Position numbers and translations under genes: made by a program. Of a stretch of 37,063 bases of DNA, positions 1 to 37,063 are shown piece after piece. Below the pieces are notes generated by a model. That model ran no database searches, had not been told where the DNA came from, and worked only from the letters and a program-made list of their open reading frames with translations. Where the stretch lies: sequence record OL964749.1; one strand, written 5' to 3'. The stretch's first letter is position 1; every line of letters begins with the position of its first letter. This stretch comes from Escherichia phage T7.

Positions 1-150
1 CTCACAGTGTACGGACCTAAAGTTCCCCCATAGGGGTACCTAAAGCCCAGCCAATCACCTAAAGTCAATGACCTTGAGGGTTCCCTAAGGGTTGGGGATG
101 ACCCTTGGGTTTGTCTTTGGGTGTTACCTTGAGTGTCTCTCTGTGTCCCT
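1..150. repeat. Left terminal direct repeat (TR) of a T7-type genome; identical copy at the right end
   Basis: Bases 1-150 recur exactly at 36914-37063; sequence matches the T7 terminal redundancy (CTCACAGTGTACGGACCTAAAG...). Confidence 0.95.
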
Positions 151-345
151 ACCTGTTACAGTCTCCTAAAGTATCCTCCTAAAGTATCCTCCTAAAGTCA
201 CCTCCTAACGTCCATCCTAAAGCCAACACCTAAAGACCCATCAAGTCAACGCCTATCTTAAAGTTTAAACATAAAGACCAGACCTAAAGACCAGACCTAA
301 AGACACTACATAAAGACCAGACCTAAAGACGCCTTGTTGTTAGCC
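151..345. repeat. Left-end array of short CCTAAAG-containing repeats (concatemer junction region)
   Basis: Repeated 12-13 bp units such as CCTAAAGTATCCT (165-177 and 178-190), CCTAAAGTCACCT, CCTAAAGACCAGA, as in the T7 left end. Confidence 0.8.
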
Positions 346-366
346 ATAAAGTGATAACCTTTAATC

Positions 367-431
367 ATTGTCTTTATTAATACAACTCATTGTCTTTATT
401 AATATAATCATTGTCTTTATTAATACAACTC
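367..431 (+). repeat. Tandem triplication of a 21-22 bp unit (ATTGTCTTTATTAATACAACTC) spanning the upstream half of promoter phiOL
   Basis: Copies at 367-388, 389-409 (variant AATATAATC) and 410-431; only the third is followed by CACTATAAGGAGAG. Confidence 0.85.
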
Positions 432-443
432 ACTATAAGGAGA
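421..443 (+). promoter_or_regulatory. T7 RNA polymerase promoter phiOL (left-end replication/packaging-associated promoter)
   Basis: TAATACAACTCACTATAAGGAGAG matches the T7 promoter consensus over -17 to +6 except two positions; predicted +1 near 438. Confidence 0.8.
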
Positions 444-494
444 GACAACTTAAAGAGACTTAAAAGATTAATTTAAAATTTATCAAAAAGAGTA

Positions 495-531
495 TTGACT
501 TAAAGTCTAACCTATAGGATACTTACAGCCA
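495..531 (+). promoter_or_regulatory. Strong early sigma70 promoter A1
   Basis: -35 TTGACT (495-500), 17-bp spacer, -10 GATACT (518-523), start near 531; matches the known T7 A1 sequence. Confidence 0.85.
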
Positions 532-642
532 TCGAGAGGGACACGGCGAATAGCCATCCCAATCGACACCGGGGTCAACCGGGCGCACAGTGCCTTCTAG
601 GTGACTTAAGCGCACCACGGCACATAAGGTGAAACAAAACGG

Positions 643-679
643 TTGACAACATGAAGTAAACACGGTACGATGTACCACA
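643..679 (+). promoter_or_regulatory. Early sigma70 promoter A3
   Basis: -35 TTGACA (643-648), 17-bp spacer, -10 TACGAT (666-671); matches T7 A3. The A2 promoter expected between A1 and A3 is absent. Confidence 0.85.
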
Positions 680-789
680 TGAAACGACAGTGAGTCACCA
701 CACTGAAAGGTGATGCGGTCTAACGAAACCTGACCTAAGACGCTCTTTAACAATCTGGTAAATAGCTCTTGAGTGCATGACTAGCGGAT

Positions 790-830
790 AACTCAAGGGT
801 ATCGCAAGGTGCCCTTTATGATATTCACTA
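790..830 (+). promoter_or_regulatory. RNase III processing hairpin R0.3
   Basis: Inverted repeat AAGGGTATCGCAAGGTGCCCTT just upstream of the ocr start, typical of T7 RNase III sites. Confidence 0.55.
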
Positions 831-853
831 ATAACTGCACGAGGTAACACAAG

Positions 854-1549
854 ATGGCTATGTCTAACATGACTTACAACAACGTTTTCGACCACGCTTA
901 CGAAATGCTGAAAGAAAACATCCGTTATGATGACATCCGTGACACTGATGACCTGCACGATGCTATTCACATGGCTGCCGATAATGCAGTTCCGCACTAC
1001 TACGCTGACATCTTTAGCGTAATGGCAAGTGAGGGCATTGACCTTGAGTTCGAAGACTCTGATCTGATGCCTGACACCAAGGACGTAATCCGCATCCTGC
1101 AAGCGCGTATCTATGAGCAATTAACGATTGACCTCTGGGAAGACGCAGAAGACTTGCTCAATGAATACTTGGAGGAAGTCGAGGAAGTCGCACGACAGAA
1201 AGAAATTGACCGCGCTAAGGCCCGTAAAGAACGTCACGAGGGGCGCTTAGAGGCACGCAGATTCAAACGTCGCAACCGCAAGGCACGTAAAGCACACAAA
1301 GCTAAGCGCGAAAGAATGCTTGCTGCGTGGCGATGGGCTGAACGTCAAGAACGGCGTAACCATGAGGTAGCTGTAGATGTACTAGGAAGAACCAATAACG
1401 CTATGCTCCGGGTCAACATGTCCTCTGGGGACTTTAAGGCGCTTGAGGAACGAATCGCGCTGCACTGGCGTAATGCTGACCGGATGGCTATCGCTAATGG
1501 TCTTACGCTCAACATTGATAAGCAACTTGACGCAATGTTAATGGGCTGA
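854..1549 (+). CDS. In-frame fusion: Ocr (gene 0.3 anti-restriction DNA mimic, residues 1 to about 111) joined to the C-terminal roughly 120 aa of gp0.7 (host transcription shut-off domain); kinase domain absent
   Basis: 231-aa ORF; N-terminus [19 protein letters not shown]...[10 protein letters not shown] equals T7 Ocr, then a basic Arg/Lys-rich tail ending 71 bp before gene 1, as gene 0.7 does in T7. Confidence 0.85.
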
Positions 1550-1552
1550 TAG

Positions 1553-1612
1553 TCTTATCTTACAGGTCATCTGCGGGTGGCCTGAATAGGTACGATTTAC
1601 TAACTGGAAGAG
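1553..1612 (+). promoter_or_regulatory. RNase III site R1 upstream of gene 1
   Basis: Hairpin CAGGTCATCTGCGGGTGGCCTG between the fusion ORF stop and the gene 1 start. Confidence 0.6.
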
Positions 1613-1619
1613 GCACTAA

Positions 1620-4271
1620 ATGAACACGATTAACATCGCTAAGAACGACTTCTCTGACATCGAACTGGCTGCTATCCCGTTCAACACTCTGGCTGACCAT
1701 TACGGTGAGCGTTTAGCTCGCGAACAGTTGGCCCTTGAGCATGAGTCTTACGAGATGGGTGAAGCACGCTTCCGCAAGATGTTTGAGCGTCAACTTAAAG
1801 CTGGTGAGGTTGCGGATAACGCTGCCGCCAAGCCTCTCATCACTACCCTACTCCCTAAGATGATTGCACGCATCAACGACTGGTTTGAGGAAGTGAAAGC
1901 TAAGCGCGGCAAGCGCCAGACAGCCTTCCAGTTCCTGCAAGAAATCAAGCCGGAAGCCGTAGCGTACATCACCATTAAGACCACTCTGGCTTGCCTAACC
2001 AGTGCTGACAATACAACCGTTCAGGCTGTAGCAAGCGCAATCGGTCGGGCCATTGAGGACGAGGCTCGCTTCGGTCGTATCCGTGACCTTGAAGCTAAGC
2101 ACTTCAAGAAAAACGTTGAGGAACAACTCAACAAGCGCGTAGGGCACGTCTACAAGAAAGCATTTATGCGAGTTGTCGAGGCTGACATGCTCTCTAAGGG
2201 TCTACTCGGTGGCGAGGCGTGGTCTTCGTGGCATAAGGAAGACTCTATTCATGTAGGAGTACGCTGCATCGAGATGCTCATTGAGTCAACCGGAATGGTT
2301 AGCTTACACCGCCAAAATGCTGGCGTAGTAGGTCAAGACTCTGAGACTATCGAACTCGCACCTGAATACGCTGAGGCTATCGCAACCCGTGCAGGTGCGC
2401 TGGCTGGCATCTCTCCGATGTTCCAACCTTGCGTAGTTCCTCCTAAGCCGTGGACTGGCATTACTGGTGGTGGCTATTGGGCTAACGGTCGTCGTCCTCT
2501 GGCGCTGGTGCGTACTCACAGTAAGAAAGCACTGATGCGCTACGAAGACGTTTACATGCCTGAGGTGTACAAAGCGATTAACATTGCGCAAAACACCGCA
2601 TGGAAAATCAACAAGAAAGTCCTAGCGGTCGCCAACGTAATCACCAAGTGGAAGCATTGTCCGGTCGAGGACATCCCTGCGATTGAGCATGAAGAACTCC
2701 CGATGAAACCGGAAGACATCGACATGAATCCTGAGGCTCTCACCGCGTGGAAACGTGCTGCCGCTGCTGTGTACCGCAAGGACAAGGCTCGCAAGTCTCG
2801 CCGTATCAGCCTTGAGTTCATGCTTGAGCAAGCCAATAAGTTTGCTAACCATAAGGCCATCTGGTTCCCTTACAACATGGACTGGCGCGGTCGTGTTTAC
2901 GCTGTGTCAATGTTCAACCCGCAAGGTAACGATATGACCAAAGGACTGCTTACGCTGGCGAAAGGTAAACCAATCGGTAAGGAAGGTTACTACTGGCTGA
3001 AAATCCACGGTGCAAACTGTGCGGGTGTCGATAAGGTTCCGTTCCCTGATCGCATCAAGTTCATTGAGGAAAACCACGAGAACATCATGGCTTGCGCTAA
3101 GTCTCCACTGGAGAACACTTGGTGGGCTGAGCAAGATTCTCCGTTCTGCTTCCTTGCGTTCTGCTTTGAGTACGCTGGGGTACAGCACCACGGCCTGAGC
3201 TATAACTGCTCCCTTCCGCTGGCGTTTGACGGGTCTTGCTCTGGCATCCAGCACTTCTCCGCGATGCTCCGAGATGAGGTAGGTGGTCGCGCGGTTAACT
3301 TGCTTCCTAGTGAAACCGTTCAGGACATCTACGGGATTGTTGCTAAGAAAGTCAACGAGATTCTACAAGCAGACGCAATCAATGGGACCGATAACGAAGT
3401 AGTTACCGTGACCGATGAGAACACTGGTGAAATCTCTGAGAAAGTCAAGCTGGGCACTAAGGCACTGGCTGGTCAATGGCTGGCTTACGGTGTTACTCGC
3501 AGTGTGACTAAGCGTTCAGTCATGACGCTGGCTTACGGGTCCAAAGAGTTCGGCTTCCGTCAACAAGTGCTGGAAGATACCATTCAGCCAGCTATTGATT
3601 CCGGCAAGGGTCTGATGTTCACTCAGCCGAATCAGGCTGCTGGATACATGGCTAAGCTGATTTGGGAATCTGTGAGCGTGACGGTGGTAGCTGCGGTTGA
3701 AGCAATGAACTGGCTTAAGTCTGCTGCTAAGCTGCTGGCTGCTGAGGTCAAAGATAAGAAGACTGGAGAGATTCTTCGCAAGCGTTGCGCTGTGCATTGG
3801 GTAACTCCTGATGGTTTCCCTGTGTGGCAGGAATACAAGAAGCCTATTCAGACGCGCTTGAACCTGATGTTCCTCGGTCAGTTCCGCTTACAGCCTACCA
3901 TTAACACCAACAAAGATAGCGAGATTGATGCACACAAACAGGAGTCTGGTATCGCTCCTAACTTTGTACACAGCCAAGACGGTAGCCACCTTCGTAAGAC
4001 TGTAGTGTGGGCACACGAGAAGTACGGAATCGAATCTTTTGCACTGATTCACGACTCCTTCGGTACCATTCCGGCTGACGCTGCGAACCTGTTCAAAGCA
4101 GTGCGCGAAACTATGGTTGACACATATGAGTCTTGTGATGTACTGGCTGATTTCTACGACCAGTTCGCTGACCAGTTGCACGAGTCTCAATTGGACAAAA
4201 TGCCAGCACTTCCGGCTAAAGGTAACTTGAACCTCCGTGACATCTTAGAGTCGGACTTCGCGTTCGCGTAA
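1620..4271 (+). CDS. T7 RNA polymerase (gene 1), single-subunit DNA-dependent RNA polymerase
   Basis: 883-aa ORF, MNTINIAKNDFSDIELAAIPFNTLADHYG...ESDFAFA, essentially identical to T7 RNAP. Confidence 0.98.
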   Translation: MNTINIAKNDFSDIELAAIPFNTLADHYGERLAREQLALEHESYEMGEARFRKMFERQLKAGEVADNAAAKPLITTLLPKMIARINDWFEEVKAKRGKRQTAFQFLQEIKPEAVAYITIKTTLACLTSADNTTVQAVASAIGRAIEDEARFGRIRDLEAKHFKKNVEEQLNKRVGHVYKKAFMRVVEADMLSKGLLGGEAWSSWHKEDSIHVGVRCIEMLIESTGMVSLHRQNAGVVGQDSETIELAPEYAEAIATRAGALAGISPMFQPCVVPPKPWTGITGGGYWANGRRPLALVRTHSKKALMRYEDVYMPEVYKAINIAQNTAWKINKKVLAVANVITKWKHCPVEDIPAIEHEELPMKPEDIDMNPEALTAWKRAAAAVYRKDKARKSRRISLEFMLEQANKFANHKAIWFPYNMDWRGRVYAVSMFNPQGNDMTKGLLTLAKGKPIGKEGYYWLKIHGANCAGVDKVPFPDRIKFIEENHENIMACAKSPLENTWWAEQDSPFCFLAFCFEYAGVQHHGLSYNCSLPLAFDGSCSGIQHFSAMLRDEVGGRAVNLLPSETVQDIYGIVAKKVNEILQADAINGTDNEVVTVTDENTGEISEKVKLGTKALAGQWLAYGVTRSVTKRSVMTLAYGSKEFGFRQQVLEDTIQPAIDSGKGLMFTQPNQAAGYMAKLIWESVSVTVVAAVEAMNWLKSAAKLLAAEVKDKKTGEILRKRCAVHWVTPDGFPVWQEYKKPIQTRLNLMFLGQFRLQPTINTNKDSEIDAHKQESGIAPNFVHSQDGSHLRKTVVWAHEKYGIESFALIHDSFGTIPADAANLFKAVRETMVDTYESCDVLADFYDQFADQLHESQLDKMPALPAKGNLNLRDILESDFAFA

Positions 4272-4279
4272 CGCCAAAT

Positions 4280-4302
4280 CAATACGACTCACTATAGAGG
4301 GA
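4280..4302 (+). promoter_or_regulatory. T7 promoter phi1.1A
   Basis: CAATACGACTCACTATAGAGGGA; +1 near 4297. Confidence 0.85.
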
Positions 4303-4354
4303 CAAACTCAAGGTCATTCGCAAGAGTGGCCTTTATGATTGACCTTCTTCCGGT

Positions 4355-4377
4355 TAATACGACTCACTATAGGAGAA
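4355..4377 (+). promoter_or_regulatory. T7 promoter phi1.1B
   Basis: TAATACGACTCACTATAGGAGAA; +1 near 4372. Confidence 0.9.
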
Positions 4378-4455
4378 CCTTAAGGTTTAACTTTAAGACC
4401 CTTAAGTGTTAATTAGAGATTTAAATTAAAGAATTAATAAGAGAGGACTTTAAGT

Positions 4456-4584
4456 ATGCGTAACTTCGAAAAGATGACCAAACGTTCTAACCGTAATGCT
4501 CGTGACTTCGAGGCAACCAAAGGTCGCAAGTTGAATAAGACTAAGCGTGACCGCTCTCACAAGCGTAGCTGGGAGGGTCAGTAA
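4456..4584 (+). CDS. Gene 1.1 protein (42 aa, basic, function unknown)
   Basis: ORF MRNFEKMTKRSNRNARDFEATKGRKLNKTKRDRSHKRSWEGQ with upstream GAGAGGA Shine-Dalgarno; position conserved with T7 gene 1.1. Confidence 0.8.
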   Translation: MRNFEKMTKRSNRNARDFEATKGRKLNKTKRDRSHKRSWEGQ

Positions 4585-4585
4585 G

Positions 4586-4843: not shown

Positions 4844-4863
4844 TACGACTCAGTATAGGGACA
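4841..4863 (+). promoter_or_regulatory. T7 promoter phi1.3
   Basis: TAATACGACTCAGTATAGGGACA; +1 near 4858. Confidence 0.85.
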
Positions 4864-4865
4864 AT

Positions 4866-4905
4866 GCTTAAGGTCGCTCTCTAGGAGTGGCCTTAGTCAT
4901 TTAAC
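4866..4905 (+). promoter_or_regulatory. RNase III site R1.3
   Basis: Hairpin TTAAGGTCGCTCTCTAGGAGTGGCCTTAG immediately downstream of phi1.3. Confidence 0.55.
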
Positions 4906-4923
4906 CAATAGGAGATAAACATT

Positions 4924-6053: not shown

Positions 6054-6076
6054 TTTTACGACTCACTAAAGGAGGT
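6054..6076 (+). promoter_or_regulatory. T7 promoter phi1.5 with non-consensus -16/-15 (TTTTACGACTCACTAAAGGAGGT)
   Basis: Matches the class II promoter from -14 to +6; positions -16 and -15 are TT instead of AA, consistent with a deletion junction at the promoter edge. Confidence 0.7.
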
Positions 6077-6198: not shown

Positions 6199-6465
6199 AT
6201 GTTTCGACTTCATTACAACAAAAGCGTTAAGAATTTCACGGTTCGCCGTGCTGACCGTTCAATCGTATGTGCGAGCGAGCGCCGAGCTAAGATACCTCTT
6301 ATTGGTAACACAGTTCCTTTGGCACCTAGCGTCCACATCATTATCACCCGTTGTGACTTTGAGAAAGCAATAGACAAGAAACGTCCGGTTCTTAGTGTGG
6401 CAGTGACCCGCTTCCCGTTCGTCCGTCTGTTACTCAAACGAATCAAGGAGGTGTTACACCTGTAA
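6199..6465 (+). CDS. Gene 1.6 protein (88 aa here; C-terminal residues may be altered by the adjacent deletion)
   Basis: [32 protein letters not shown]...; position and N-terminus match T7 gene 1.6. Confidence 0.8.
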
Positions 6466-7350: not shown

Positions 7351-8049
7351 ATGGCTAAGAAGATTTTCACCTCTGCGCTGGGTACCGCTGAACCTTACGC
7401 TTACATCGCCAAGCCGGACTACGGCAACGAAGAGCGTGGCTTTGGGAACCCTCGTGGTGTCTATAAAGTTGACCTGACTATTCCCAACAAAGACCCGCGC
7501 TGCCAGCGTATGGTCGATGAAATCGTGAAGTGTCACGAAGAGGCTTATGCTGCTGCCGTTGAGGAATACGAAGCTAATCCACCTGCTGTAGCTCGTGGTA
7601 AGAAACCGCTGAAACCGTATGAGGGTGACATGCCGTTCTTCGATAACGGTGACGGTACGACTACCTTTAAGTTCAAATGCTACGCGTCTTTCCAAGACAA
7701 GAAGACCAAAGAGACCAAGCACATCAATCTTGTTGTGGTTGACTCAAAAGGTAAGAAGATGGAAGACGTTCCGATTATCGGTGGTGGCTCTAAGCTGAAA
7801 GTTAAATATTCTCTGGTTCCATACAAGTGGAACACTGCTGTAGGTGCGAGCGTTAAGCTGCAACTGGAATCCGTGATGCTGGTCGAACTGGCTACCTTTG
7901 GTGGCGGTGAAGACGATTGGGCTGACGAAGTTGAAGAGAACGGCTATGTTGCCTCTGGTTCTGCCAAAGCGAGCAAACCACGCGACGAAGAAAGCTGGGA
8001 CGAAGACGACGAAGAGTCCGAGGAAGCAGACGAAGACGGAGACTTCTAA
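7351..8049 (+). CDS. Single-stranded DNA-binding protein gp2.5
   Basis: 232-aa ORF MAKKIFTSALGTAEPYAYIAKPDYGNEERGFGNPRGVYKVDLTIPN... with acidic C-terminal tail ending ...EADEDGDF. Confidence 0.95.
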   Translation: MAKKIFTSALGTAEPYAYIAKPDYGNEERGFGNPRGVYKVDLTIPNKDPRCQRMVDEIVKCHEEAYAAAVEEYEANPPAVARGKKPLKPYEGDMPFFDNGDGTTTFKFKCYASFQDKKTKETKHINLVVVDSKGKKMEDVPIIGGGSKLKVKYSLVPYKWNTAVGASVKLQLESVMLVELATFGGGEDDWADEVEENGYVASGSAKASKPRDEESWDEDDEESEEADEDGDF

Positions 8050-8469
8050 GTGGAACTGCGGGAGAAAATCCTTGAGCGAATCAAGGTGACTTCCTCTGGG
8101 TGTTGGGAGTGGCAGGGCGCTACGAACAATAAAGGGTACGGGCAGGTGTGGTGCAGCAATACCGGAAAGGTTGTCTACTGTCATCGCGTAATGTCTAATG
8201 CTCCGAAAGGTTCTACCGTCCTGCACTCCTGTGATAATCCATTATGTTGTAACCCTGAACACCTATCCATAGGAACTCCAAAAGAGAACTCCACTGACAT
8301 GGTAAATAAGGGTCGCTCACACAAGGGGTATAAACTTTCAGACGAAGACGTAATGGCAATCATGGAGTCCAGCGAGTCCAATGTATCCTTAGCTCGCACC
8401 TATGGTGTCTCCCAACAGACTATTTGTGATATACGCAAATGGAGGCGACATGGCAGGTTACGGCGCTAA
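8050..8469 (+). CDS. Gene 2.8 protein (139 aa), HNH-type endonuclease-like
   Basis: ORF starting at GTG directly after the 2.5 stop; contains CHRVMSNAPKGSTVLHSCDNPLCCNPEHL, an HNH-like Cys/His motif. Confidence 0.7.
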   Translation: MELREKILERIKVTSSGCWEWQGATNNKGYGQVWCSNTGKVVYCHRVMSNAPKGSTVLHSCDNPLCCNPEHLSIGTPKENSTDMVNKGRSHKGYKLSDEDVMAIMESSESNVSLARTYGVSQQTICDIRKWRRHGRLRR

Positions 8470-9355: not shown

Positions 9356-9377
9356 TAATTGAACTCACTAAAGGGAG

Positions 9378-9378
<1 letters not shown>
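9356..9378 (+). promoter_or_regulatory. T7 promoter phi3.8
   Basis: TAATTGAACTCACTAAAGGGAGA; +1 near 9373. Confidence 0.85.
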
Positions 9379-11239
<1,861 letters not shown>

Positions 11240-11242
<3 letters not shown>

Positions 11243-11262
11243 TACGACTCACTAAAGGCCAC
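11240..11262 (+). promoter_or_regulatory. T7 promoter phi4.3 with altered initially transcribed sequence (GGCCAC instead of GGAGAC)
   Basis: TAATACGACTCACTAAAGG then CCACACAG; consensus through +2, consistent with a deletion junction at +3. Confidence 0.75.
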
Positions 11263-11380
11263 ACAGTCACGCGCTCTGGCGATTCGCTCCAACGAACTGG
11301 CTGACAGTGCATCCACTAAAGTTACCGAGGCTGCCCGTGTGGCAAACCAAGCTCAACAGCTTTCCAAATTCTTTGAGTAA
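11259..11380 (+). pseudogene. Remnant of gene 4.3 lacking RBS, start codon and about 30 N-terminal codons
   Basis: In-frame segment ATQSRALAIRSNELADSASTKVTEAARVANQAQQLSKFFE without an initiator; about 100 bp missing relative to reference. Confidence 0.65.
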
Positions 11381-11399
11381 TCAAACAGGAGAAACCATT

Positions 11400-11669
11400 A
11401 TGTCTAACGTAGCTGAAACTATCCGTCTATCCGATACAGCTGACCAGTGGAACCGTCGAGTCCACATCAACGTTCGCAACGGTAAGGCGACTATGGTTTA
11501 CCGCTGGAAGGACTCTAAGTCCTCTAAGAATCACACTCAGCGTATGACGTTGACAGATGAGCAAGCACTGCGTCTGGTCAATGCGCTTACCAAAGCTGCC
11601 GTGACAGCAATTCATGAAGCTGGTCGCGTCAATGAAGCTATGGCTATCCTCGACAAGATTGATAACTAA
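11400..11669 (+). CDS. Gene 4.5 protein (89 aa)
   Basis: ORF MSNVAETIRLSDTADQWNRRVHINVRNGKATMVYRWKDSK... preceded by CAGGAGAA; the track start at 11307 is an upstream extension. Confidence 0.85.
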   Translation: MSNVAETIRLSDTADQWNRRVHINVRNGKATMVYRWKDSKSSKNHTQRMTLTDEQALRLVNALTKAAVTAIHEAGRVNEAMAILDKIDN

Positions 11670-11742: not shown

Positions 11743-11994
11743 ATGCGTGACCCTAAAGTTATCCAAGCAGAAATCGCTAAACTGGAAGCTGAACTGGAGG
11801 ACGTTAAGTACCATGAAGCTAAGACTCGCTCCGCTGTTCACATCTTGAAGAACTTAGGCTGGACTTGGACAAGACAGACTGGCTGGAAGAAACCAGAAGT
11901 TACCAAGCTGAGTCATAAGGTGTTCGATAAGGACACTATGACCCACATCAAGGCTGGTGATTGGGTTAAGGTTGACATGGGAGTTGTAACATGA
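11743..11994 (+). CDS. Gene 4.7 protein, truncated: 83 aa against 135 aa in reference T7
   Basis: ORF MRDPKVIQAEIAKLEAELEDVKYHEAKTRS...VDMGVVT; about 100 bp missing near the 3' end, with the frame-shifted original stop about 55 nt downstream. Confidence 0.7.
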   Translation: MRDPKVIQAEIAKLEAELEDVKYHEAKTRSAVHILKNLGWTWTRQTGWKKPEVTKLSHKVFDKDTMTHIKAGDWVKVDMGVVT

Positions 11995-12068: not shown

Positions 12069-14183
12069 ATGATCGTTTCTGACATCGAAGCTAACGCCCT
12101 CTTAGAGAGCGTCACTAAGTTCCACTGCGGGGTTATCTACGACTACTCCACCGCTGAGTACGTAAGCTACCGTCCGAGTGACTTCGGTGCGTATCTGGAT
12201 GCGCTGGAAGCCGAGGTTGCACGAGGCGGTCTTATTGTGTTCCACAACGGTCACAAGTATGACGTTCCTGCATTGACCAAACTGGCAAAGTTGCAATTGA
12301 ACCGAGAGTTCCACCTTCCTCGTGAGAACTGTATTGACACCCTTGTGTTGTCACGTTTGATTCATTCCAACCTCAAGGACACCGATATGGGTCTTCTGCG
12401 TTCCGGCAAGTTGCCCGGAAAACGCTTTGGGTCTCACGCTTTGGAGGCGTGGGGTTATCGCTTAGGCGAGATGAAGGGTGAATACAAAGACGACTTTAAG
12501 CGTATGCTTGAAGAGCAGGGTGAAGAATACGTTGACGGAATGGAGTGGTGGAACTTCAACGAAGAGATGATGGACTATAACGTTCAGGACGTTGTGGTAA
12601 CTAAAGCTCTCCTTGAGAAGCTACTCTCTGACAAACATTACTTCCCTCCTGAGATTGACTTTACGGACGTAGGATACACTACGTTCTGGTCAGAATCCCT
12701 TGAGGCCGTTGACATTGAACATCGTGCTGCATGGCTGCTCGCTAAACAAGAGCGCAACGGGTTCCCGTTTGACACAAAAGCAATCGAAGAGTTGTACGTA
12801 GAGTTAGCTGCTCGCCGCTCTGAGTTGCTCCGTAAATTGACCGAAACGTTCGGCTCGTGGTATCAGCCTAAAGGTGGCACTGAGATGTTCTGCCATCCGC
12901 GAACAGGTAAGCCACTACCTAAATACCCTCGCATTAAGACACCTAAAGTTGGTGGTATCTTTAAGAAGCCTAAGAACAAGGCACAGCGAGAAGGCCGTGA
13001 GCCTTGCGAACTTGATACCCGCGAGTACGTTGCTGGTGCTCCTTACACCCCAGTTGAACATGTTGTGTTTAACCCTTCGTCTCGTGACCACATTCAGAAG
13101 AAACTCCAAGAGGCTGGGTGGGTCCCGACCAAGTACACCGATAAGGGTGCTCCTGTGGTGGACGATGAGGTACTCGAAGGAGTACGTGTAGATGACCCTG
13201 AGAAGCAAGCCGCTATCGACCTCATTAAAGAGTACTTGATGATTCAGAAGCGAATCGGACAGTCTGCTGAGGGAGACAAAGCATGGCTTCGTTATGTTGC
13301 TGAGGATGGTAAGATTCATGGTTCTGTTAACCCTAATGGAGCAGTTACGGGTCGTGCGACCCATGCGTTCCCAAACCTTGCGCAAATTCCGGGTGTACGT
13401 TCTCCTTATGGAGAGCAGTGTCGCGCTGCTTTTGGCGCTGAGCACCATTTGGATGGGATAACTGGTAAGCCTTGGGTTCAGGCTGGCATCGACGCATCCG
13501 GTCTTGAGCTACGCTGCTTGGCTCACTTCATGGCTCGCTTTGATAACGGCGAGTACGCTCACGAGATTCTTAACGGCGACATCCACACTAAGAACCAGAT
13601 AGCTGCTGAACTACCTACCCGAGATAACGCTAAGACGTTCATCTATGGGTTCCTCTATGGTGCTGGTGATGAGAAGATTGGACAGATTGTTGGTGCTGGT
13701 AAAGAGCGCGGTAAGGAACTCAAGAAGAAATTCCTTGAGAACACCCCCGCGATTGCAGCACTCCGCGAGTCTATCCAACAGACACTTGTCGAGTCCTCTC
13801 AATGGGTAGCTGGTGAGCAACAAGTCAAGTGGAAACGCCGCTGGATTAAAGGTCTGGATGGTCGTAAGGTACACGTTCGTAGTCCTCACGCTGCCTTGAA
13901 TACCCTACTGCAATCTGCTGGTGCTCTCATCTGCAAACTGTGGATTATCAAGACCGAAGAGATGCTCGTAGAGAAAGGCTTGAAGCATGGCTGGGATGGG
14001 GACTTTGCGTACATGGCATGGGTACATGATGAAATCCAAGTAGGCTGCCGTACCGAAGAGATTGCTCAGGTGGTCATTGAGACCGCACAAGAAGCGATGC
14101 GCTGGGTTGGAGACCACTGGAACTTCCGGTGTCTTCTGGATACCGAAGGTAAGATGGGTCCTAATTGGGCGATTTGCCACTGA
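12069..14183 (+). CDS. DNA polymerase gp5 (family A, thioredoxin-binding, with 3'-5' exonuclease)
   Basis: 704-aa [39 protein letters not shown]... with exonuclease and polymerase motifs; matches T7 gp5. Confidence 0.98.
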
Positions 14184-14198
14184 TACAGGAGGCTACTC

Positions 14199-14402
14199 AT
14201 GAACGAAAGACACTTAACAGGTGCTGCTTCTGAAATGCTAGTAGCCTACAAATTTACCAAAGCTGGGTACACTGTCTATTACCCTATGCTGACTCAGAGT
14301 AAAGAGGACTTGGTTGTATGTAAGGATGGTAAATTTAGTAAGGTTCAGGTTAAAACATTGTGGTTGACGAAGATGTGCTTATTTTCACATGGGACGAAGT
14401 AA
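14199..14402 (+). CDS. Gene 5.3 (HNH endonuclease-like), frameshift-truncated to 67 aa against 118 aa in reference
   Basis: N-terminus MNERHLTGAASEMLVAYKFTKAGYTVYYPMLTQSKEDLVVCKDGKFSKVQVKT matches gp5.3, then a short out-of-frame tail; about 100 bp missing. Confidence 0.7.
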   Translation: MNERHLTGAASEMLVAYKFTKAGYTVYYPMLTQSKEDLVVCKDGKFSKVQVKTLWLTKMCLFSHGTK

Positions 14403-16479: not shown

Positions 16480-16746
16480 ATGTGTTTCTCACCGAAAATT
16501 AAAACTCCGAAGATGGATACCAATCAGATTCGAGCCGTTGAGCCAGCGCCTCTGACCCAAGAAGTGTCAAGCGTGGAGTTCGGTGGGTCTTCTGATGAGA
16601 CGGATACCGAGGGCACCGAAGTGTCTGGACGCAAAGGCCTCAAGGTCGAACGTGATGATTCCGTAGCGAAGTCTAAAGCCAGCGGCAATGGCTCCGCTCG
16701 TATGAAATCTTCCATCCGTAAGTCCGCATTTGGAGGTAAGAAGTGA
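16480..16746 (+). CDS. Gene 6.7 protein (88 aa, virion protein)
   Basis: ORF MCFSPKIKTPKMDTNQIRAVEPAPLTQEVSSVEFGG...; the track start at 16459 is an upstream extension. Confidence 0.8.
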   Translation: MCFSPKIKTPKMDTNQIRAVEPAPLTQEVSSVEFGGSSDETDTEGTEVSGRKGLKVERDDSVAKSKASGNGSARMKSSIRKSAFGGKK

Positions 16747-17147
16747 TGTCTGAGTTCACATGTGTGGAGGCTAAGAGTCGCTTCCGTGCAATCCGGTGGA
16801 CTGTGGAACACCTTGGGTTGCCTAAAGGATTCGAAGGACACTTTGTGGGCTACAGCCTCTACGTAGACGAAGTGATGGACATGTCTGGTTGCCGTGAAGA
16901 GTACATTCTGGACTCTACCGGAAAACATGTAGCGTACTTCGCGTGGTGCGTAAGCTGTGACATTCACCACAAAGGAGACATTCTGGATGTAACGTCCGTT
17001 GTCATTAATCATGAGGCAGACTCTAAGGGCTTACAGCGATTCCTAGCGAAACGCTTTAAGTACCTTGCGGAACTCCACGATTGCGATTGGGTGTCTCGTT
17101 GTAAGCATGAAGGCGAGACAATGCGTGTATACTTTAAGGAGGTATAA
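16746..17147 (+). CDS. Gene 7 protein (133 aa)
   Basis: ORF MSEFTCVEAKSRFRAIRWTVEHLGLPKGFEGHFVGYSLYV...; start overlaps the 6.7 stop (GTGATG). Confidence 0.85.
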   Translation: MSEFTCVEAKSRFRAIRWTVEHLGLPKGFEGHFVGYSLYVDEVMDMSGCREEYILDSTGKHVAYFAWCVSCDIHHKGDILDVTSVVINHEADSKGLQRFLAKRFKYLAELHDCDWVSRCKHEGETMRVYFKEV

Positions 17148-17150: not shown

Positions 17151-17438
17151 ATGGGTAAGAAAGTTAAGAAGGCCGTGAAGAAAGTCACCAAGTCCGTTAA
17201 GGAAGGGGCTCGTCCGGTTAAACAGGTTGCTGGCGGTCTAGCTGGTCTGGCTGGTGGTACTGGTGAAGCACAGATGGTGGAAGTACCACAAGCTGCCGCA
17301 CAGATTGTTGACGTACCTGAGAAAGAGGTTTCCACTGAGGACGAAGCACAGACAGAAAGCGGACGCAAGAAAGCTCGTGCTGGCGGTAAGAAATCCTTGA
17401 GTGTAGCCCGTAGCTCCGGTGGCGGTATCAACATTTAA
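17151..17438 (+). CDS. Gene 7.3 protein (tail-associated), 95 aa here (reference about 99 aa)
   Basis: Lys-rich ORF MGKKVKKAVKKVTKSVKEGARPVKQVAGGLAGLAGG... preceded by AAGGAGGT. Confidence 0.8.
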   Translation: MGKKVKKAVKKVTKSVKEGARPVKQVAGGLAGLAGGTGEAQMVEVPQAAAQIVDVPEKEVSTEDEAQTESGRKKARAGGKKSLSVARSSGGGINI

Positions 17439-17451
17439 TCAGGAGGTTATC

Positions 17452-17475
17452 CGTAAGACATGGAGACACATTTAA
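17452..17475 (+). other. Residual 3' end of gene 7.7 (last 7 codons plus stop), retaining the gene 8 ribosome-binding region
   Basis: Only CGTAAGACATGGAGACACATTTAA remains between the 7.3 intergenic AGGAGG and the gene 8 ATG, where reference T7 carries the roughly 130-codon gene 7.7. Confidence 0.65.
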
Positions 17476-19184: not shown

Positions 19185-20108
19185 ATGGCTGAATCTAATG
19201 CAGACGTATATGCATCTTTTGGCGTGAACTCCGCTGTGATGTCTGGTGGTTCCGTTGAGGAACATGAGCAGAACATGCTGGCTCTTGATGTTGCTGCCCG
19301 TGATGGCGATGATGCAATCGAGTTAGCGTCAGACGAAGTGGAAACAGAACGTGACCTGTATGACAACTCTGACCCGTTCGGTCAAGAGGATGACGAAGGC
19401 CGCATTCAGGTTCGTATCGGTGATGGCTCTGAGCCGACCGATGTGGACACTGGAGAAGAAGGCGTTGAGGGCACCGAAGGTTCCGAAGAGTTTACCCCAC
19501 TGGGCGAGACTCCAGAAGAACTGGTAGCTGCCTCTGAGCAACTTGGTGAGCACGAAGAGGGCTTCCAAGAGATGATTAACATTGCTGCTGAGCGTGGCAT
19601 GAGTGTCGAGACCATTGAGGCTATCCAGCGTGAGTACGAGGAGAACGAAGAGTTGTCCGCCGAGTCCTACGCTAAGCTGGCTGAAATTGGCTACACGAAG
19701 GCTTTCATTGACTCGTATATCCGTGGTCAAGAAGCTCTGGTGGAGCAGTACGTAAACAGTGTCATTGAGTACGCTGGTGGTCGTGAACGTTTTGATGCAC
19801 TGTATAACCACCTTGAGACGCACAACCCTGAGGCTGCACAGTCGCTGGATAATGCGTTGACCAATCGTGACTTAGCGACCGTTAAGGCTATCATCAACTT
19901 GGCTGGTGAGTCTCGCGCTAAGGCGTTCGGTCGTAAGCCAACTCGTAGTGTGACTAATCGTGCTATTCCGGCTAAACCTCAGGCTACCAAGCGTGAAGGC
20001 TTTGCGGACCGTAGCGAGATGATTAAAGCTATGAGTGACCCTCGGTATCGCACAGATGCCAACTATCGTCGTCAAGTCGAACAGAAAGTAATCGATTCGA
20101 ACTTCTGA
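19185..20108 (+). CDS. Capsid assembly (scaffolding) protein gp9
   Basis: 307-aa acidic ORF MAESNADVYASFGVNSAVMSGGSVEEHEQNMLALD...; matches T7 gp9. Confidence 0.95.
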   Translation: MAESNADVYASFGVNSAVMSGGSVEEHEQNMLALDVAARDGDDAIELASDEVETERDLYDNSDPFGQEDDEGRIQVRIGDGSEPTDVDTGEEGVEGTEGSEEFTPLGETPEELVAASEQLGEHEEGFQEMINIAAERGMSVETIEAIQREYEENEELSAESYAKLAEIGYTKAFIDSYIRGQEALVEQYVNSVIEYAGGRERFDALYNHLETHNPEAAQSLDNALTNRDLATVKAIINLAGESRAKAFGRKPTRSVTNRAIPAKPQATKREGFADRSEMIKAMSDPRYRTDANYRRQVEQKVIDSNF

Positions 20109-20121
20109 TAGACTTCGAAAT

Positions 20122-20144
20122 TAATACGACTCACTATAGTGAGA
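20122..20144 (+). promoter_or_regulatory. T7 class III promoter phi10 carrying a G-to-T change at +2 (TATAGTGAGA instead of TATAGGGAGA)
   Basis: TAATACGACTCACTATAGTGAGACCACAACGGTTTCCCTCTAGAAATAATTTTGTTTAACTTTAAGAAGGAGATATACATATG; otherwise identical to the phi10 promoter and leader used in pET vectors. Confidence 0.9.
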
Positions 20145-20201
20145 CCACAACGGTTTCCCTCTAGAAATAATTTTGTTTAACTTTAAGAAGGAGATATACA
20201 T

Positions 20202-21239
20202 ATGGCTAGCATGACTGGTGGACAGCAAATGGGTACTAACCAAGGTAAAGGTGTAGTTGCTGCTGGAGATAAACTGGCGTTGTTCTTGAAGGTATTTGGC
20301 GGTGAAGTCCTGACTGCGTTCGCTCGTACCTCCGTGACCACTTCTCGCCACATGGTACGTTCCATCTCCAGCGGTAAATCCGCTCAGTTCCCTGTTCTGG
20401 GTCGCACTCAGGCAGCGTATCTGGCTCCGGGCGAGAACCTCGACGATAAACGTAAGGACATCAAACACACCGAGAAGGTAATCACCATTGACGGTCTCCT
20501 GACGGCTGACGTTCTGATTTATGATATTGAGGACGCGATGAACCACTACGACGTTCGCTCTGAGTATACCTCTCAGTTGGGTGAATCTCTGGCGATGGCT
20601 GCGGATGGTGCGGTTCTGGCTGAGATTGCCGGTCTGTGTAACGTGGAAAGCAAATATAATGAGAACATCGAGGGCTTAGGTACTGCTACCGTAATTGAGA
20701 CCACTCAGAACAAGGCCGCACTTACCGACCAAGTTGCGCTGGGTAAGGAGATTATTGCGGCTCTGACTAAGGCTCGTGCGGCTCTGACCAAGAACTATGT
20801 TCCGGCTGCTGACCGTGTGTTCTACTGTGACCCAGATAGCTACTCTGCGATTCTGGCAGCACTGATGCCGAACGCAGCAAACTACGCTGCTCTGATTGAC
20901 CCTGAGAAGGGTTCTATCCGCAACGTTATGGGCTTTGAGGTTGTAGAAGTTCCGCACCTCACCGCTGGTGGTGCTGGTACCGCTCGTGAGGGCACTACTG
21001 GTCAGAAGCACGTCTTCCCTGCCAATAAAGGTGAGGGTAATGTCAAGGTTGCTAAGGACAACGTTATCGGCCTGTTCATGCACCGCTCTGCGGTAGGTAC
21101 TGTTAAGCTGCGTGACTTGGCTCTGGAGCGCGCTCGCCGTGCTAACTTCCAAGCGGACCAGATTATCGCTAAGTACGCAATGGGCCACGGTGGTCTTCGC
21201 CCAGAAGCTGCTGGTGCAGTGGTTTTCAAAGTGGAGTAA
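20202..21239 (+). CDS. Major capsid protein gp10A
   Basis: 345-aa ORF MASMTGGQQMGTNQGKGVVAAGDKLALFLKVFGGEVLTAFARTSV...; identical to T7 gp10A including the T7-tag N-terminus. Confidence 0.98.
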   Translation: MASMTGGQQMGTNQGKGVVAAGDKLALFLKVFGGEVLTAFARTSVTTSRHMVRSISSGKSAQFPVLGRTQAAYLAPGENLDDKRKDIKHTEKVITIDGLLTADVLIYDIEDAMNHYDVRSEYTSQLGESLAMAADGAVLAEIAGLCNVESKYNENIEGLGTATVIETTQNKAALTDQVALGKEIIAALTKARAALTKNYVPAADRVFYCDPDSYSAILAALMPNAANYAALIDPEKGSIRNVMGFEVVEVPHLTAGGAGTAREGTTGQKHVFPANKGEGNVKVAKDNVIGLFMHRSAVGTVKLRDLALERARRANFQADQIIAKYAMGHGGLRPEAAGAVVFKVE

Positions 21240-33520: not shown

Positions 33521-33578
33521 TTGGTAAATCACAAGGAAAGACGTGTAGTCCACGGATGGACTCTCAAGGAGGTACAAG

Positions 33579-33782
33579 GTGCTATCATTAGACTTTAACA
33601 ACGAATTGATTAAGGCTGCTCCAATTGTTGGGACGGGTGTAGCAGATGTTAGTGCTCGACTGTTCTTTGGGTTAAGCCTTAACGAATGGTTCTACGTTGC
33701 TGCTATCGCCTACACAGTGGTTCAGATTGGTGCCAAGGTAGTCGATAAGATGATTGACTGGAAGAAAGCCAATAAGGAGTGA
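33579..33782 (+). CDS. Holin (gene 17.5)
   Basis: 67-aa ORF with one hydrophobic segment and charged C-terminus (MLSLDFNNELIKAAPIVGTGVADVSARLFFGLSLNEWFYVAAIAYTVVQIGAKVVDKMIDWKKANKE). Confidence 0.9.
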   Translation: MLSLDFNNELIKAAPIVGTGVADVSARLFFGLSLNEWFYVAAIAYTVVQIGAKVVDKMIDWKKANKE

Positions 33783-33787
33783 TATGT

Positions 33788-34057
33788 ATGGAAAAGGATA
33801 AGAGCCTTATTACATTCTTAGAGATGTTGGACACTGCGATGGCTCAGCGTATGCTTGCGGACCTTTCGGACCATGAGCGTCGCTCTCCGCAACTCTATAA
33901 TGCTATTAACAAACTGTTAGACCGCCACAAGTTCCAGATTGGTAAGTTGCAGCCGGATGTTCACATCTTAGGTGGCCTTGCTGGTGCTCTTGAAGAGTAC
34001 AAAGAGAAAGTCGGTGATAACGGTCTTACGGATGATGATATTTACACATTACAGTGA
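33788..34057 (+). CDS. Terminase small subunit gp18
   Basis: 89-aa ORF MEKDKSLITFLEMLDTAMAQRMLADLSDHERRSPQLYNAINKLLDRHKF...; the track start at 33779 is an upstream extension. Confidence 0.9.
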   Translation: MEKDKSLITFLEMLDTAMAQRMLADLSDHERRSPQLYNAINKLLDRHKFQIGKLQPDVHILGGLAGALEEYKEKVGDNGLTDDDIYTLQ

Positions 34058-34059
34058 TA

Positions 34060-34100
34060 TACTCAAGGCCACTACAGATAGTGGTCTTTATGGATGTCAT
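34060..34100 (+). promoter_or_regulatory. RNase III site R18.5
   Basis: Hairpin CAAGGCCACTACAGATAGTGGTCTTTATGG downstream of gene 18. Confidence 0.55.
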
Positions 34101-34151
34101 TGTCTATACGAGATGCTCCTACGTGAAATCTGAAAGTTAACGGGAGGCATT

Positions 34152-34583
34152 ATGCTAGAATTTTTACGTAAGCTAATCCCTTGGGTTCTCGCTGGGATGC
34201 TATTCGGGTTAGGATGGCATCTAGGGTCAGACTCAATGGACGCTAAATGGAAACAGGAGGTACACAATGAGTACGTTAAGAGAGTTGAGGCTGCGAAGAG
34301 CACTCAAAGAGCAATCGATGCGGTATCTGCTAAGTATCAAGAAGACCTTGCCGCGCTGGAAGGGAGCACTGATAGGATTATTTCTGATTTGCGTAGCGAC
34401 AATAAGCGGTTGCGCGTCAGAGTCAAAACTACCGGAACCTCCGATGGTCAGTGTGGATTCGAGCCTGATGGTCGAGCCGAACTTGACGACCGAGATGCTA
34501 AACGTATTCTCGCAGTGACCCAGAAGGGTGACGCATGGATTCGTGCGTTACAGGATACTATTCGTGAACTGCAACGTAAGTAG
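34152..34583 (+). CDS. Gene 18.5 protein (Rz-like inner-membrane spanin component)
   Basis: 143-aa ORF with N-terminal transmembrane segment MLEFLRKLIPWVLAGMLFGLGWHLG and coiled-coil-like remainder. Confidence 0.9.
   Translation: MLEFLRKLIPWVLAGMLFGLGWHLGSDSMDAKWKQEVHNEYVKRVEAAKSTQRAIDAVSAKYQEDLAALEGSTDRIISDLRSDNKRLRVRVKTTGTSDGQCGFEPDGRAELDDRDAKRILAVTQKGDAWIRALQDTIRELQRK
34267..34518 (+). CDS. Gene 18.7 protein (Rz1-like outer-membrane lipoprotein spanin component), embedded in the +1 frame of 18.5
   Basis: 83-aa ORF containing a lipobox-like LICVATISGC and Pro-rich tail, nested in 18.5 as in T7. Confidence 0.75.
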   Translation: MSTLRELRLRRALKEQSMRYLLSIKKTLPRWKGALIGLFLICVATISGCASESKLPEPPMVSVDSSLMVEPNLTTEMLNVFSQ

Positions 34584-34604
34584 GAAATCAAGTAAGGAGG
34601 CAAT

Positions 34605-36365
34605 GTGTCTACTCAATCCAATCGTAATGCGCTCGTAGTGGCGCAACTGAAAGGAGACTTCGTGGCGTTCCTATTCGTCTTATGGAAGGCGCTAAACCTA
34701 CCGGTTCCCACTACGTGTCAGATTGACATGGCTAAGGTGCTGGCGAATGGAGACAACAAGAAGTTCATCTTACAGGCTTTCCGTGGTATCGGTAAGTCGT
34801 TCATCACATGTGCGTTCGTTGTGTGGTCCTTATGGAGAGACCCTCAGTTGAAGATACTTATCGTATCAGCCTCTAAGGAGCGTGCAGACGCTAACTCCAT
34901 CTTTATTAAGAACATCATTGACCTGCTGCCATTCCTATCTGAGTTAAAGCCAAGACCCGGACAGCGTGACTCGGTAATCAGCTTTGATGTAGGCCCAGCC
35001 AATCCTGACCACTCTCCTAGTGTGAAATCAGTAGGTATCACTGGTCAGTTAACTGGTAGCCGTGCTGACATTATCATTGCGGATGACGTTGAGATTCCGT
35101 CTAACAGCGCAACTATGGGTGCCCGTGAGAAGCTATGGACTCTGGTTCAGGAGTTCGCTGCGTTACTTAAACCGCTGCCTTCCTCTCGCGTTATCTACCT
35201 TGGTACACCTCAGACAGAGATGACTCTCTATAAGGAACTTGAGGATAACCGTGGGTACACAACCATTATCTGGCCTGCTCTGTACCCAAGGACACGTGAA
35301 GAGAACCTCTATTACTCACAGCGTCTTGCTCCTATGTTACGCGCTGAGTACGATGAGAACCCTGAGGCACTTGCTGGGACTCCAACAGACCCAGTGCGCT
35401 TTGACCGTGATGACCTGCGCGAGCGTGAGTTGGAATACGGTAAGGCTGGCTTTACGCTACAGTTCATGCTTAACCCTAACCTTAGTGATGCCGAGAAGTA
35501 CCCGCTGAGGCTTCGTGACGCTATCGTAGCGGCCTTAGACTTAGAGAAGGCCCCAATGCATTACCAGTGGCTTCCGAACCGTCAGAACATCATTGAGGAC
35601 CTTCCTAACGTTGGCCTTAAGGGTGATGACCTGCATACGTACCACGATTGTTCCAACAACTCAGGTCAGTACCAACAGAAGATTCTGGTCATTGACCCTA
35701 GTGGTCGCGGTAAGGACGAAACAGGTTACGCTGTGCTGTACACACTGAACGGTTACATCTACCTTATGGAAGCTGGAGGTTTCCGTGATGGCTACTCCGA
35801 TAAGACCCTTGAGTTACTCGCTAAGAAGGCAAAGCAATGGGGAGTCCAGACGGTTGTCTACGAGAGTAACTTCGGTGACGGTATGTTCGGTAAGGTATTC
35901 AGTCCTATCCTTCTTAAACACCACAACTGTGCGATGGAAGAGATTCGTGCCCGTGGTATGAAAGAGATGCGTATTTGCGATACCCTTGAGCCAGTCATGC
36001 AGACTCACCGCCTTGTAATTCGTGATGAGGTCATTAGGGCCGACTACCAGTCCGCTCGTGACGTAGACGGTAAGCATGACGTTAAGTACTCGTTGTTCTA
36101 CCAGATGACCCGTATCACTCGTGAGAAAGGCGCTCTGGCTCATGATGACCGATTGGATGCCCTTGCGTTAGGCATTGAGTATCTCCGTGAGTCCATGCAG
36201 TTGGATTCCGTTAAGGTCGAGGGTGAAGTACTTGCTGACTTCCTTGAGGAACACATGATGCGTCCTACGGTTGCTGCTACGCATATCATTGAGATGTCTG
36301 TGGGAGGAGTTGATGTGTACTCTGAGGACGATGAGGGTTACGGTACGTCTTTCATTGAGTGGTGA
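34605..36365 (+). CDS. Terminase large subunit gp19 (ATPase/nuclease DNA maturase)
   Basis: 586-aa [38 protein letters not shown]... with Walker A-like FRGIGKS. Confidence 0.95.
35251..35508 (+). CDS. Gene 19.2 ORF embedded out of frame in gene 19; doubtful expression
   Basis: Alternate-frame ORF at the position of T7 19.2; no convincing independent signal. Confidence 0.25.
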
Positions 36366-36446
36366 TTTATGCATTAGGACTGCATAGGGATGCACTATAG
36401 ACCACGGATGGTCAGTTCTTTAAGTTACTGAAAAGACACGATAAAT

Positions 36447-36469
36447 TAATACGACTCACTATAGGGAGA
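36447..36469 (+). promoter_or_regulatory. T7 class III promoter phiOR (right-end, replication/packaging-associated)
   Basis: TAATACGACTCACTATAGGGAGA; +1 near 36464. Confidence 0.95.
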
Positions 36470-36623
36470 GGAGGGACGAAAGGTTACTATATAGATACTG
36501 AATGAATACTTATAGAGTGCATAAAGTATGCATAATGGTGTACCTAGAGTGACCTCTAAGAATGGTGATTATATTGTATTAGTATCACCTTAACTTAAGG
36601 ACCAACATAAAGGGAGGAGACTC

Positions 36624-36773
36624 ATGTTCCGCTTATTGTTGAACCTACTGCGGCATAGAGTCACCTACCGATTTCTTGTGGTACTTTGTGCTGCCCTTGG
36701 GTACGCATCTCTTACTGGAGACCTCAGTTCACTGGAGTCTGTCGTTTGCTCTATACTCACTTGTAGCGATTAG
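36624..36773 (+). CDS. Gene 19.5 protein (49 aa, hydrophobic)
   Basis: ORF MFRLLLNLLRHRVTYRFLVVLCAALGYASLTGDLSSLESVVCSILTCSD preceded by AAAGGGAGGAGA. Confidence 0.8.
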   Translation: MFRLLLNLLRHRVTYRFLVVLCAALGYASLTGDLSSLESVVCSILTCSD

Positions 36774-36912
36774 GGTCTTCCTGACCGACTGATGGCTCAT
36801 CTATACCTAAAGATAGGCCATCCTATCAGTGTCACCTAAAGAGGGTCTTAGAGAGGGCCTATGGAGTTCCTATAGGGTCCTTTAAAATATACCATAAAAA
36901 TCTGAGTGACTA

Positions 36913-37063
36913 TCTCACAGTGTACGGACCTAAAGTTCCCCCATAGGGGTACCTAAAGCCCAGCCAATCACCTAAAGTCAATGACCTTGAGGGTTCCCTA
37001 AGGGTTGGGGATGACCCTTGGGTTTGTCTTTGGGTGTTACCTTGAGTGTCTCTCTGTGTCCCT
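36913..37063. repeat. Right terminal direct repeat (TR)
   Basis: 36914-37063 is identical to 1-150; the preceding T at 36913 corresponds to the first TR base missing from the window start. Confidence 0.95.

Follow-up and report, generated by a model that had tools for sequence, protein, structure and literature searches.

The sequence record OL964749.1, from Escherichia phage T7, presents what looks like a complete T7 genome that is 2,874 bp (7.20%) shorter than the 39,937-bp reference genome NC_001604 by global alignment. This raises the question of whether the missing segments were removed by engineering, lost spontaneously under laboratory selection, left out of a synthetic design, or absent through natural variation. 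We analyzed the whole stretch of 37,063 bp, referred to here as the window, and we are highly confident that it is a genome-reduced T7 from the CiPGr experiment, both engineered and laboratory evolved, and already published (Yuan et al., Nucleic Acids Res 2022, PMC9825161). In CiPGr, wild-type T7 underwent hundreds of passages through E. coli MG1655 that contained Cas9, lambda-Red, and a pool of plasmids, in which each plasmid combined a spacer against a candidate nonessential gene with a donor containing two 50-bp homology arms (PMC9825161). The donors followed one of two designs, with cassette-100 removing 100 bp around the target and cassette-gene removing the whole gene (PMC9825161).

A complete T7 genome with ten large deletions

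Positions 1-150 of the window were 100% identical to positions 36914-37063, which places direct terminal repeats at either end and indicates that the sequence spans terminal repeat to terminal repeat. The window begins at T7 nucleotide 2, with T7 nucleotide 1 alone absent at the start. Throughout its length, the window was collinear with NC_001604, with each aligned block 99.5-100% identical and the reference order kept. The global alignment revealed 2,930 bp deleted, 56 bp inserted, and 40 single-nucleotide polymorphisms (SNPs) relative to the reference, and this sum accounts exactly for the 37,063 bases. The essential genes (1, 2.5, 3, 3.5, 4, 5, 6, 7.3, and 8-19) were all full length with 0-5 amino-acid substitutions, gp7.3 being shorter by four residues in frame. 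The elements lost or truncated were promoter A2; genes 0.4, 0.5, and 0.6; the kinase domain of gene 0.7; the N terminus of gene 1.7; and genes 1.4, 3.8, 4.3, 4.7, 5.3, and 7.7. Compared to wild-type T7 (NC_001604 / V01146), the window maintained the gene order, the terminal-repeat architecture, and the essential genes, as well as the majority of the annotated phage and E. coli promoters included in our check, but it lacked A2, contained altered phi1.5, phi10, and phi13 promoters, and had a mutated pause motif at the concatemer junction.

An earlier sequence-only reading of this DNA, made without database searches, had described a complete T7 genome, bounded by terminal repeats, with the full essential gene set, about 2.9 kb shorter than reference T7 in about ten missing blocks (A2, 0.4-0.7, 1.4, the 1.7 N terminus, 3.8, 4.3, 4.7, 5.3, 7.7, and a right-end spacer), several of them of about 100 bp. 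Our whole-genome alignment bore out this description in each respect, including all ten blocks, five of which measured exactly 100 bp. We also observed smaller events that this reading did not contain, namely a fusion of genes 0.3 and 0.7, a deletion in gene 7.3, losses within the terminal repeats, a change in a left-end repeat array, and a duplication at phiOL.

Megablast searches with both halves of the window yielded upwards of 100 T7 records, each at least 99% identical, and the overall identity of the window to T7 was 99.7-99.9%. The best records were OL964748.1 (37,088 bp) and OL964750.1 (37,455 bp), both of which are close in length to the window.

Deletion junctions fall into three classes

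Analysis of junction anatomy separated the large deletions into three classes: deletions of exactly 100 bp (n = 5), deletions anchored on an open reading frame (ORF; n = 2), and deletions between direct repeats (n = 3; Table 1). The five 100-bp deletions were scarless and without foreign DNA, and their junctions contained only 0-3 bp of microhomology. The occurrence of exactly 100 bp in five of ten large deletions is not a chance pattern. The two ORF-anchored deletions, of genes 1.4 and 7.7, showed zero microhomology. Both looked ORF-precise in the sequence-only reading. Gene 1.4 was deleted from ATG to TAA, and the deletion of gene 7.7 begins at the GTG start and leaves 24 bp before the stop codon. 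The format of the 7.7 cut matched that of the 5.3 cassette-gene deletion (reference positions 16483-16820) found in other CiPGr clones. Because the 100-bp and whole-gene sizes match the two CiPGr cassette designs, these deletions can be tied to the designs by size and format, not to individual cassettes. We also found 5-38 candidate SpCas9 protospacers with an NGG protospacer-adjacent motif (PAM) in each designed segment, which is weak evidence, as such numbers are expected by chance.

The deletions of A2, 0.3-0.7, and 3.8 sit on direct repeats of 9, 13, and 9 bp, respectively. We infer that these three deletions arose spontaneously, either because they allowed the phage to evade Cas9 cleavage or because losing the sequence improved fitness. 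The CiPGr study describes large deletions outside its designs at gp0.3-0.6 and at gp19.5 (PMC9825161). The deletion of gene 3.8 differed from the designed cassette-gene deletion of this gene (reference positions 11254-11545), and our reading of the flanks suggests that it may restore the phi3.8 promoter sequence via its repeat. We considered whether the deletions might be assembly artefacts and rejected this explanation, as sibling clones whose genomes were assembled independently have the same junctions.

The 100-bp deletion at the right end lies outside all genes annotated in NC_001604, just to the left of the right terminal repeat. At the same spot, other CiPGr clones contained either clustered SNPs (39572/39590/39592) or a 189-bp deletion. 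These recurrent changes imply that the study must have targeted a predicted ORF or a spacer at this location.

Protein accessions identify the window as a CiPGr clone

The window RNA polymerase, which contains two private substitutions, was identical to UJQ71098.1, and gp16 was identical to UJQ71132.1. Both accessions fall between the protein accessions of clones T7_1t1 (UJQ71055-096) and T7_1t3 (UJQ71139-181), where they are the 2nd and 36th of 42 intervening protein accessions, the same slots that these genes occupy in T7_1t1. Neighboring nucleotide accessions in the series belong to selz, seszw, and further T7 clones of one study. The window also encodes gp17 N158D, a substitution named in the CiPGr paper (PMC9825161). 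We conclude that the window is almost certainly clone T7_1t2 (OL964749). T7_1t2 is probably the mutant that the paper calls T7_100_t2, described as “optimal” with a genome reduced by 7.1% and killing that is 10% faster (PMC9825161). The fitness of T7_100_t2 was lower by 0.9 doublings per hour, and wild type outcompeted it (PMC9825161). The nearest genomes, the exact protein matches, and the cassette-sized deletions all agree with the proposal from the sequence-only reading that this DNA is an engineered or laboratory-evolved minimized T7 rather than a natural isolate or a novel system.

A CiPGr origin would account for the different kinds of change in one genome. Cas9 would kill unedited genomes, allowing donor-templated edits to accumulate, with cassette-100 donors producing the five scarless 100-bp cuts and the ORF-anchored cuts of 1.4 and 7.7 following the cassette-gene format. 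Cas9 escape or fitness-driven loss would generate the three direct-repeat deletions, serial passage would add about 38 new point mutations, and recombination between co-infecting lineages would result in a mosaic genome.

Several observations weigh against this assignment or parts of it. The clone name “1t2” and its equation with T7_100_t2 are both our inferences, and the 7.1% reduction of T7_100_t2 is slightly closer to the 7.13% of T7_1t1 than to the 7.20% of the window. Furthermore, the window contains two deletions of the whole-gene type (1.4 and 7.7), which are unexpected in a cassette-100 lineage. This suggests that an extra assumption is needed, either carry-over between oligonucleotide pools made on one chip or gene flow between parallel phage lines.

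Sibling clones hold different subsets of the same edits

We tabulated the variants of ten CiPGr genomes in matrices: the window, 1t1, 1t3, 10L, 30S, 40L, 120S, 180S, 5t1, and 5t2. Among these ten genomes, exact 100-bp deletions were confined to the 1t clones, which contained four or five each, and the nL/nS and 5t clones contained whole-gene or large-fragment deletions. Because the 100-bp deletions occur only in 1t clones, “1” denotes the cassette-100 library and “5” the cassette-gene library.

The window, 1t1, and 1t3 have 30 variants in common. T7_1t1 (OL964748.1) and T7_1t3 (OL964750.1), each recorded as “Mutant Escherichia phage T7 clone,” share with the window the A2, 0.3-0.7, 1.4, 1.6/1.7, 3.8, 4.3, 4.7, and right-end deletions, as well as an 8-bp terminal-repeat deletion and the concatemer-junction mutation. 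Unlike the window, T7_1t1 has an intact gene 5.3 but lacks a further 75 bp that separate phi1.1A from phi1.1B, and T7_1t3 has kept gene 7.7. Nine SNPs were private to the window, including those for RNA polymerase R357H and E477D, phi10 +2 G>T, and phi13 +6 A>C.

The cassette-gene clones (30S, 40L, 120S, 180S, 5t1, and 5t2; MZ3752xx and OL964739-41) come from the same experiment and parental stock. They resemble the window in an identical 1.4 deletion, several substitutions in gp16, gp17, and RNA polymerase, and a mutated junction motif, and 30S also lacks the same 1,480 bp of the early region. The window thus shares both of these deletions and five SNPs with cassette-gene clones. In contrast to the window, these clones have deletions of 338 bp in 5.3, 292 bp in 3.8, 1,019 bp across 4.3-4.7, 563 or 676 bp across 0.4-0.6, and 189 bp at 19.5, along with an 18-bp terminal-repeat deletion. 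Within the 1t lineage, each of the three possible pairs of clones shared variants to the exclusion of the third clone, and these mutually incompatible patterns switched 11 times along the genome. The 1t clones are recombinant mosaics of co-circulating lineages, which fits with the pooling of 30-60 populations before screening (PMC9825161).

Most point mutations arose during the experiment

The earliest clone that we examined, 10L, was essentially reference T7 with two SNPs that are common to all clones, indicating that the approximately 38 other SNPs of the window arose during the experiment. The window SNPs were mostly missense; about 90% of T7 mutations in the CiPGr study were missense (PMC9825161). 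Half of the nonparental SNPs (19/38) were G:C>T:A transversions. This class represented 22/53 SNPs in the 1t lineage versus 7/34 in the cassette-gene lineage (Fisher p = 0.06), and its strand bias was not significant.

We considered escape from Cas9 through PAM mutation as a general cause of the point mutations. A GG/CC dinucleotide was affected by 13/38 nonparental SNPs versus 19.6% expected (p = 0.024), but enrichment at PAMs among SNPs of G/C origin was not significant (13/24 versus 40%, p = 0.12). We rejected PAM escape as a general cause, as the enrichment was weak and suggestive only. This weak signal agrees with the approximately 23% of T7 mutations reported to lie in spacer or PAM regions (PMC9825161). 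In gene 2.8, the window contained 10247 G>T and 1t1 and 1t3 contained 10248 G>T (reference coordinates), affecting neighboring Gs of one GG dinucleotide. This pair is a convincing case and looks like two independent PAM-escape events.

Alternative origins of the reduced genome

A T7 that was purely laboratory evolved, with all deletions spontaneous and fixed by selection for faster replication in the absence of any engineering, would explain the three deletions on direct repeats of 9-13 bp, which is the classical spontaneous route, as well as the many point mutations and the recurrence of an almost identical 0.3/0.7 junction in the independent records PV223880-83. Spontaneous events, however, follow neither round numbers nor annotation, and the window contains five cuts of exactly 100 bp with almost no microhomology and two cuts that start at the first base of an ORF. 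The exact protein matches to the CiPGr deposit also argue against this explanation, which is effectively refuted by the 100-bp series and which we consider very unlikely. The scarless, ORF-aware deletions, with a 1.4 cut that follows the annotation literally enough to clip phi1.5, might instead point to a rationally designed or chemically synthesized minimal T7, built in a single step from a design file. Such a build is hard to reconcile with 38 nonparental, mostly missense SNPs, with microhomology deletions, or with untidy repeat changes at the left end. Moreover, the same edits appear in differing combinations among the mosaic genomes of the sibling clones, as would result from pooled, iterative editing and evolution, and we give a single-step design very little credence.

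Homing-endonuclease-type gene content varies among T7 relatives, and both 3.8 and 7.7 are annotated as HNH homing endonucleases. A natural T7-like isolate that is short through variation in gene content, for instance without these two genes, could therefore be imagined. Outside the deletions, however, the window matched reference T7 at 99.8-99.9% identity, its junctions occurred elsewhere only in genomes labeled as laboratory mutants, and the early clone T7_10L from the same study was essentially reference T7. With queries spanning the junctions, CiPGr clones matched at 100%, and the 0.3::0.7 junction also matched PV223880-83 at 98.6%; only laboratory T7 mutants matched these queries fully, and we found no natural isolate with the same junctions. 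The sequence-only reading had named a collinear natural T7-like genome of the same length as the finding that would contradict it, and our searches for one found none. A natural origin is thus extremely improbable, and iterative editing combined with laboratory evolution in CiPGr best fits the junctions, the protein matches, and the mosaic structure of the clones.

An early-region deletion fuses Ocr to gp0.7

The 1,480-bp early deletion removed genes 0.4, 0.5, and 0.6 and the kinase part of 0.7 to create an in-frame fusion of Ocr (gp0.3) to the C-terminal part of gp0.7. The fusion retains the whole Pfam ocr domain (residues 3-103, E = 1.7e-62). Removal of gp0.3 was not possible on the K-12 host of the CiPGr study (PMC9825161).

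The junction of this deletion was identical in five other CiPGr clones. The independent records PV223880-83, which include “recombinant T7-B,” contain a junction that differs at one base (98.6% identity), so that the 13-bp repeat may be a hotspot at which deletions recur. T7 mutants of the Studier collection reportedly arose through spontaneous deletion of dispensable sequence in the 0.3-0.7 early region by recombination between short direct repeats. The window resembles these classical mutants in route, having lost early genes through a short (13-bp) direct repeat. Unlike the classical mutants, the early deletion is one of ten in the window, and the function-bearing Ocr residues 1-106 are kept as a fusion.

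The concatemer-junction pause motif, terminal repeats, and promoters are altered

The motif ATCTGTT is a strictly sequence-specific class II pause and termination signal of T7 RNA polymerase, and the natural T7 copy is located at the concatemer junction (bioRxiv 10.1101/2021.01.11.426313). The complex of RNA polymerase with lysozyme is thought to pause at the junction, starting DNA maturation and packaging. On the plus strand, reference T7 contains one ATCTGTT, directly to the right of the left terminal repeat (161-167), and the window contains zero. Nine of the ten CiPGr clones examined had an altered motif, and the changes comprised three distinct substitutions (161 A>C, 162 T>C, and 167 T>A); the motif was wild type only in 10L. 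We detected the 162C allele in 24 records, every one of them from CiPGr. The main text of Yuan et al. 2022 does not discuss changes to the junction motif, the terminal repeats, or phi10. We tentatively raise the possibility that CiPGr conditions repeatedly favor T7 genomes that have lost the junction pause, which might then be dispensable or even costly for packaging, although we regard this as doubtful.

We also examined Cas9 escape as a cause of the motif changes. Off-target escape is unlikely, as no other T7 site lies within five mismatches of 161-180 and no gene is annotated there. Two minus-strand protospacers (GGG or AGG PAM) would place 161-167 in the seed, with a CCT PAM abutting the motif, so that seed escape at this motif is formally possible.

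The terminal repeat of the window measured 151 bp versus 160 bp in the reference, due to losses of 8 bp and 1 bp. The 8-bp deletion takes out the center of the palindrome GTCAACC-TTC-GGTTGAC, and of 143 T7-like records, only those of the 1t lineage contained it. A different terminal-repeat deletion, of 18 bp (reference positions 99-116), was present in the cassette-gene lineage. The terminal repeat appears to be either a repeated target of change in CiPGr or subject to assembly artefacts of a collapsed repeat. Also at the left end, one 13-bp unit of a repeat array was gained and another was lost, and a 22-bp unit upstream of phiOL was expanded into a tandem array. The phiOL promoter remains intact, and its +1 lies at window position 438. 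The array upstream of phiOL differed slightly among the three 1t clones, which represents either real instability or assembly difficulty.

Three phage promoters were altered by substitution or as a side effect of a deletion (Table 1). The substitutions at phi10 and phi13 affect the initiation regions of class III promoters. At phi10, clones 120S and 180S contained +1 G>T instead of the +2 substitution of the window. Because these changes fall at different positions, the phi10 start was hit independently in the window and in 120S/180S.

Table 1. Features of the window and their coordinates in the window and in reference T7 (NC_001604)
Feature	Size	Reference	Window	Strand	Remarks
Left terminal repeat			1..150	+	8-bp (ref 71-78) and 1-bp (ref 34) deletions
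Concatemer-junction class II pause/termination motif		161-167	151..157	+	ATCTGTT to ACCTGTT (ref 162 T>C)
Tandem array upstream of phiOL	22 bp x 3.1		365..432	+	Unit TCATTGTCTTTATTAATACAAC; 43-bp insertion; upstream half of phiOL; one copy in reference
A2-removing deletion	104 bp	544-647	574..582 (junction)	+	9-bp direct repeat GTCAACCGG; spontaneous type
Ocr::gp0.7 fusion ORF	231 aa		854..1549	+	In frame; Ocr residues 1-106 plus C-terminal ~125 residues of gp0.7
Early-region deletion, end of 0.3 via 0.4/0.5/0.6 to mid-0.7	1,480 bp	1244-2723	1173-1185 (repeat)	+	13-bp direct repeat AGGAAGTCGAGGA
phi1.5			6054-6076		Positions -16/-15 changed (TAATACG to TTTTACG); collateral of overlapping 1.4 deletion
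Gene 1.4 deletion	156 bp	7608-7763	6056..6057	+	ATG to TAA; no microhomology
1.6/1.7 deletion	100 bp	8163-8262	6455..6456	+	1.6 stop and first 97 nt of 1.7
Gene 3.8 deletion, 5' part	277 bp	11177-11453	9370..9378	+	9-bp direct repeat AAAGGGAGA; 4A start kept
Gene 4.3 deletion	100 bp	13340-13439	11255..11256	+	Ribosome-binding site and 5' end
Gene 4.7 deletion	100 bp	14172-14271	11987..11988	+	
Gene 5.3 deletion	100 bp	16642-16741	14357..14358	+	Also in 1t3, not in 1t1
Gene 7.3 deletion	12 bp	19579-19590	17194..17195	+	In frame; between 7-bp repeats
Gene 7.7 deletion	369 bp	19848-20216	17451..17452	+	GTG start to 24 bp before stop; cassette-gene format
phi10 +2 G>T			20140	+	Private to window clone
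phi13 +6 A>C			24514		
Right-end spacer deletion (19.5 to right terminal repeat)	100 bp	39565-39664	36799..36800	+	
Right terminal repeat			36914..37063	+	Identical to left; same 8-bp (ref 39848-39855) and 1-bp deletions

Implications

The deletions in the window add nothing new beyond Yuan et al. 2022 regarding which T7 genes are removable. The reading of their junctions offers a template for recognizing constructs, in which scarless cuts of round-number size or anchored on annotation indicate design and cuts on direct repeats indicate spontaneous loss. If the repeated mutations of the concatemer-junction motif and terminal repeat in independent clones are adaptive, they would bear on how T7 starts DNA packaging.

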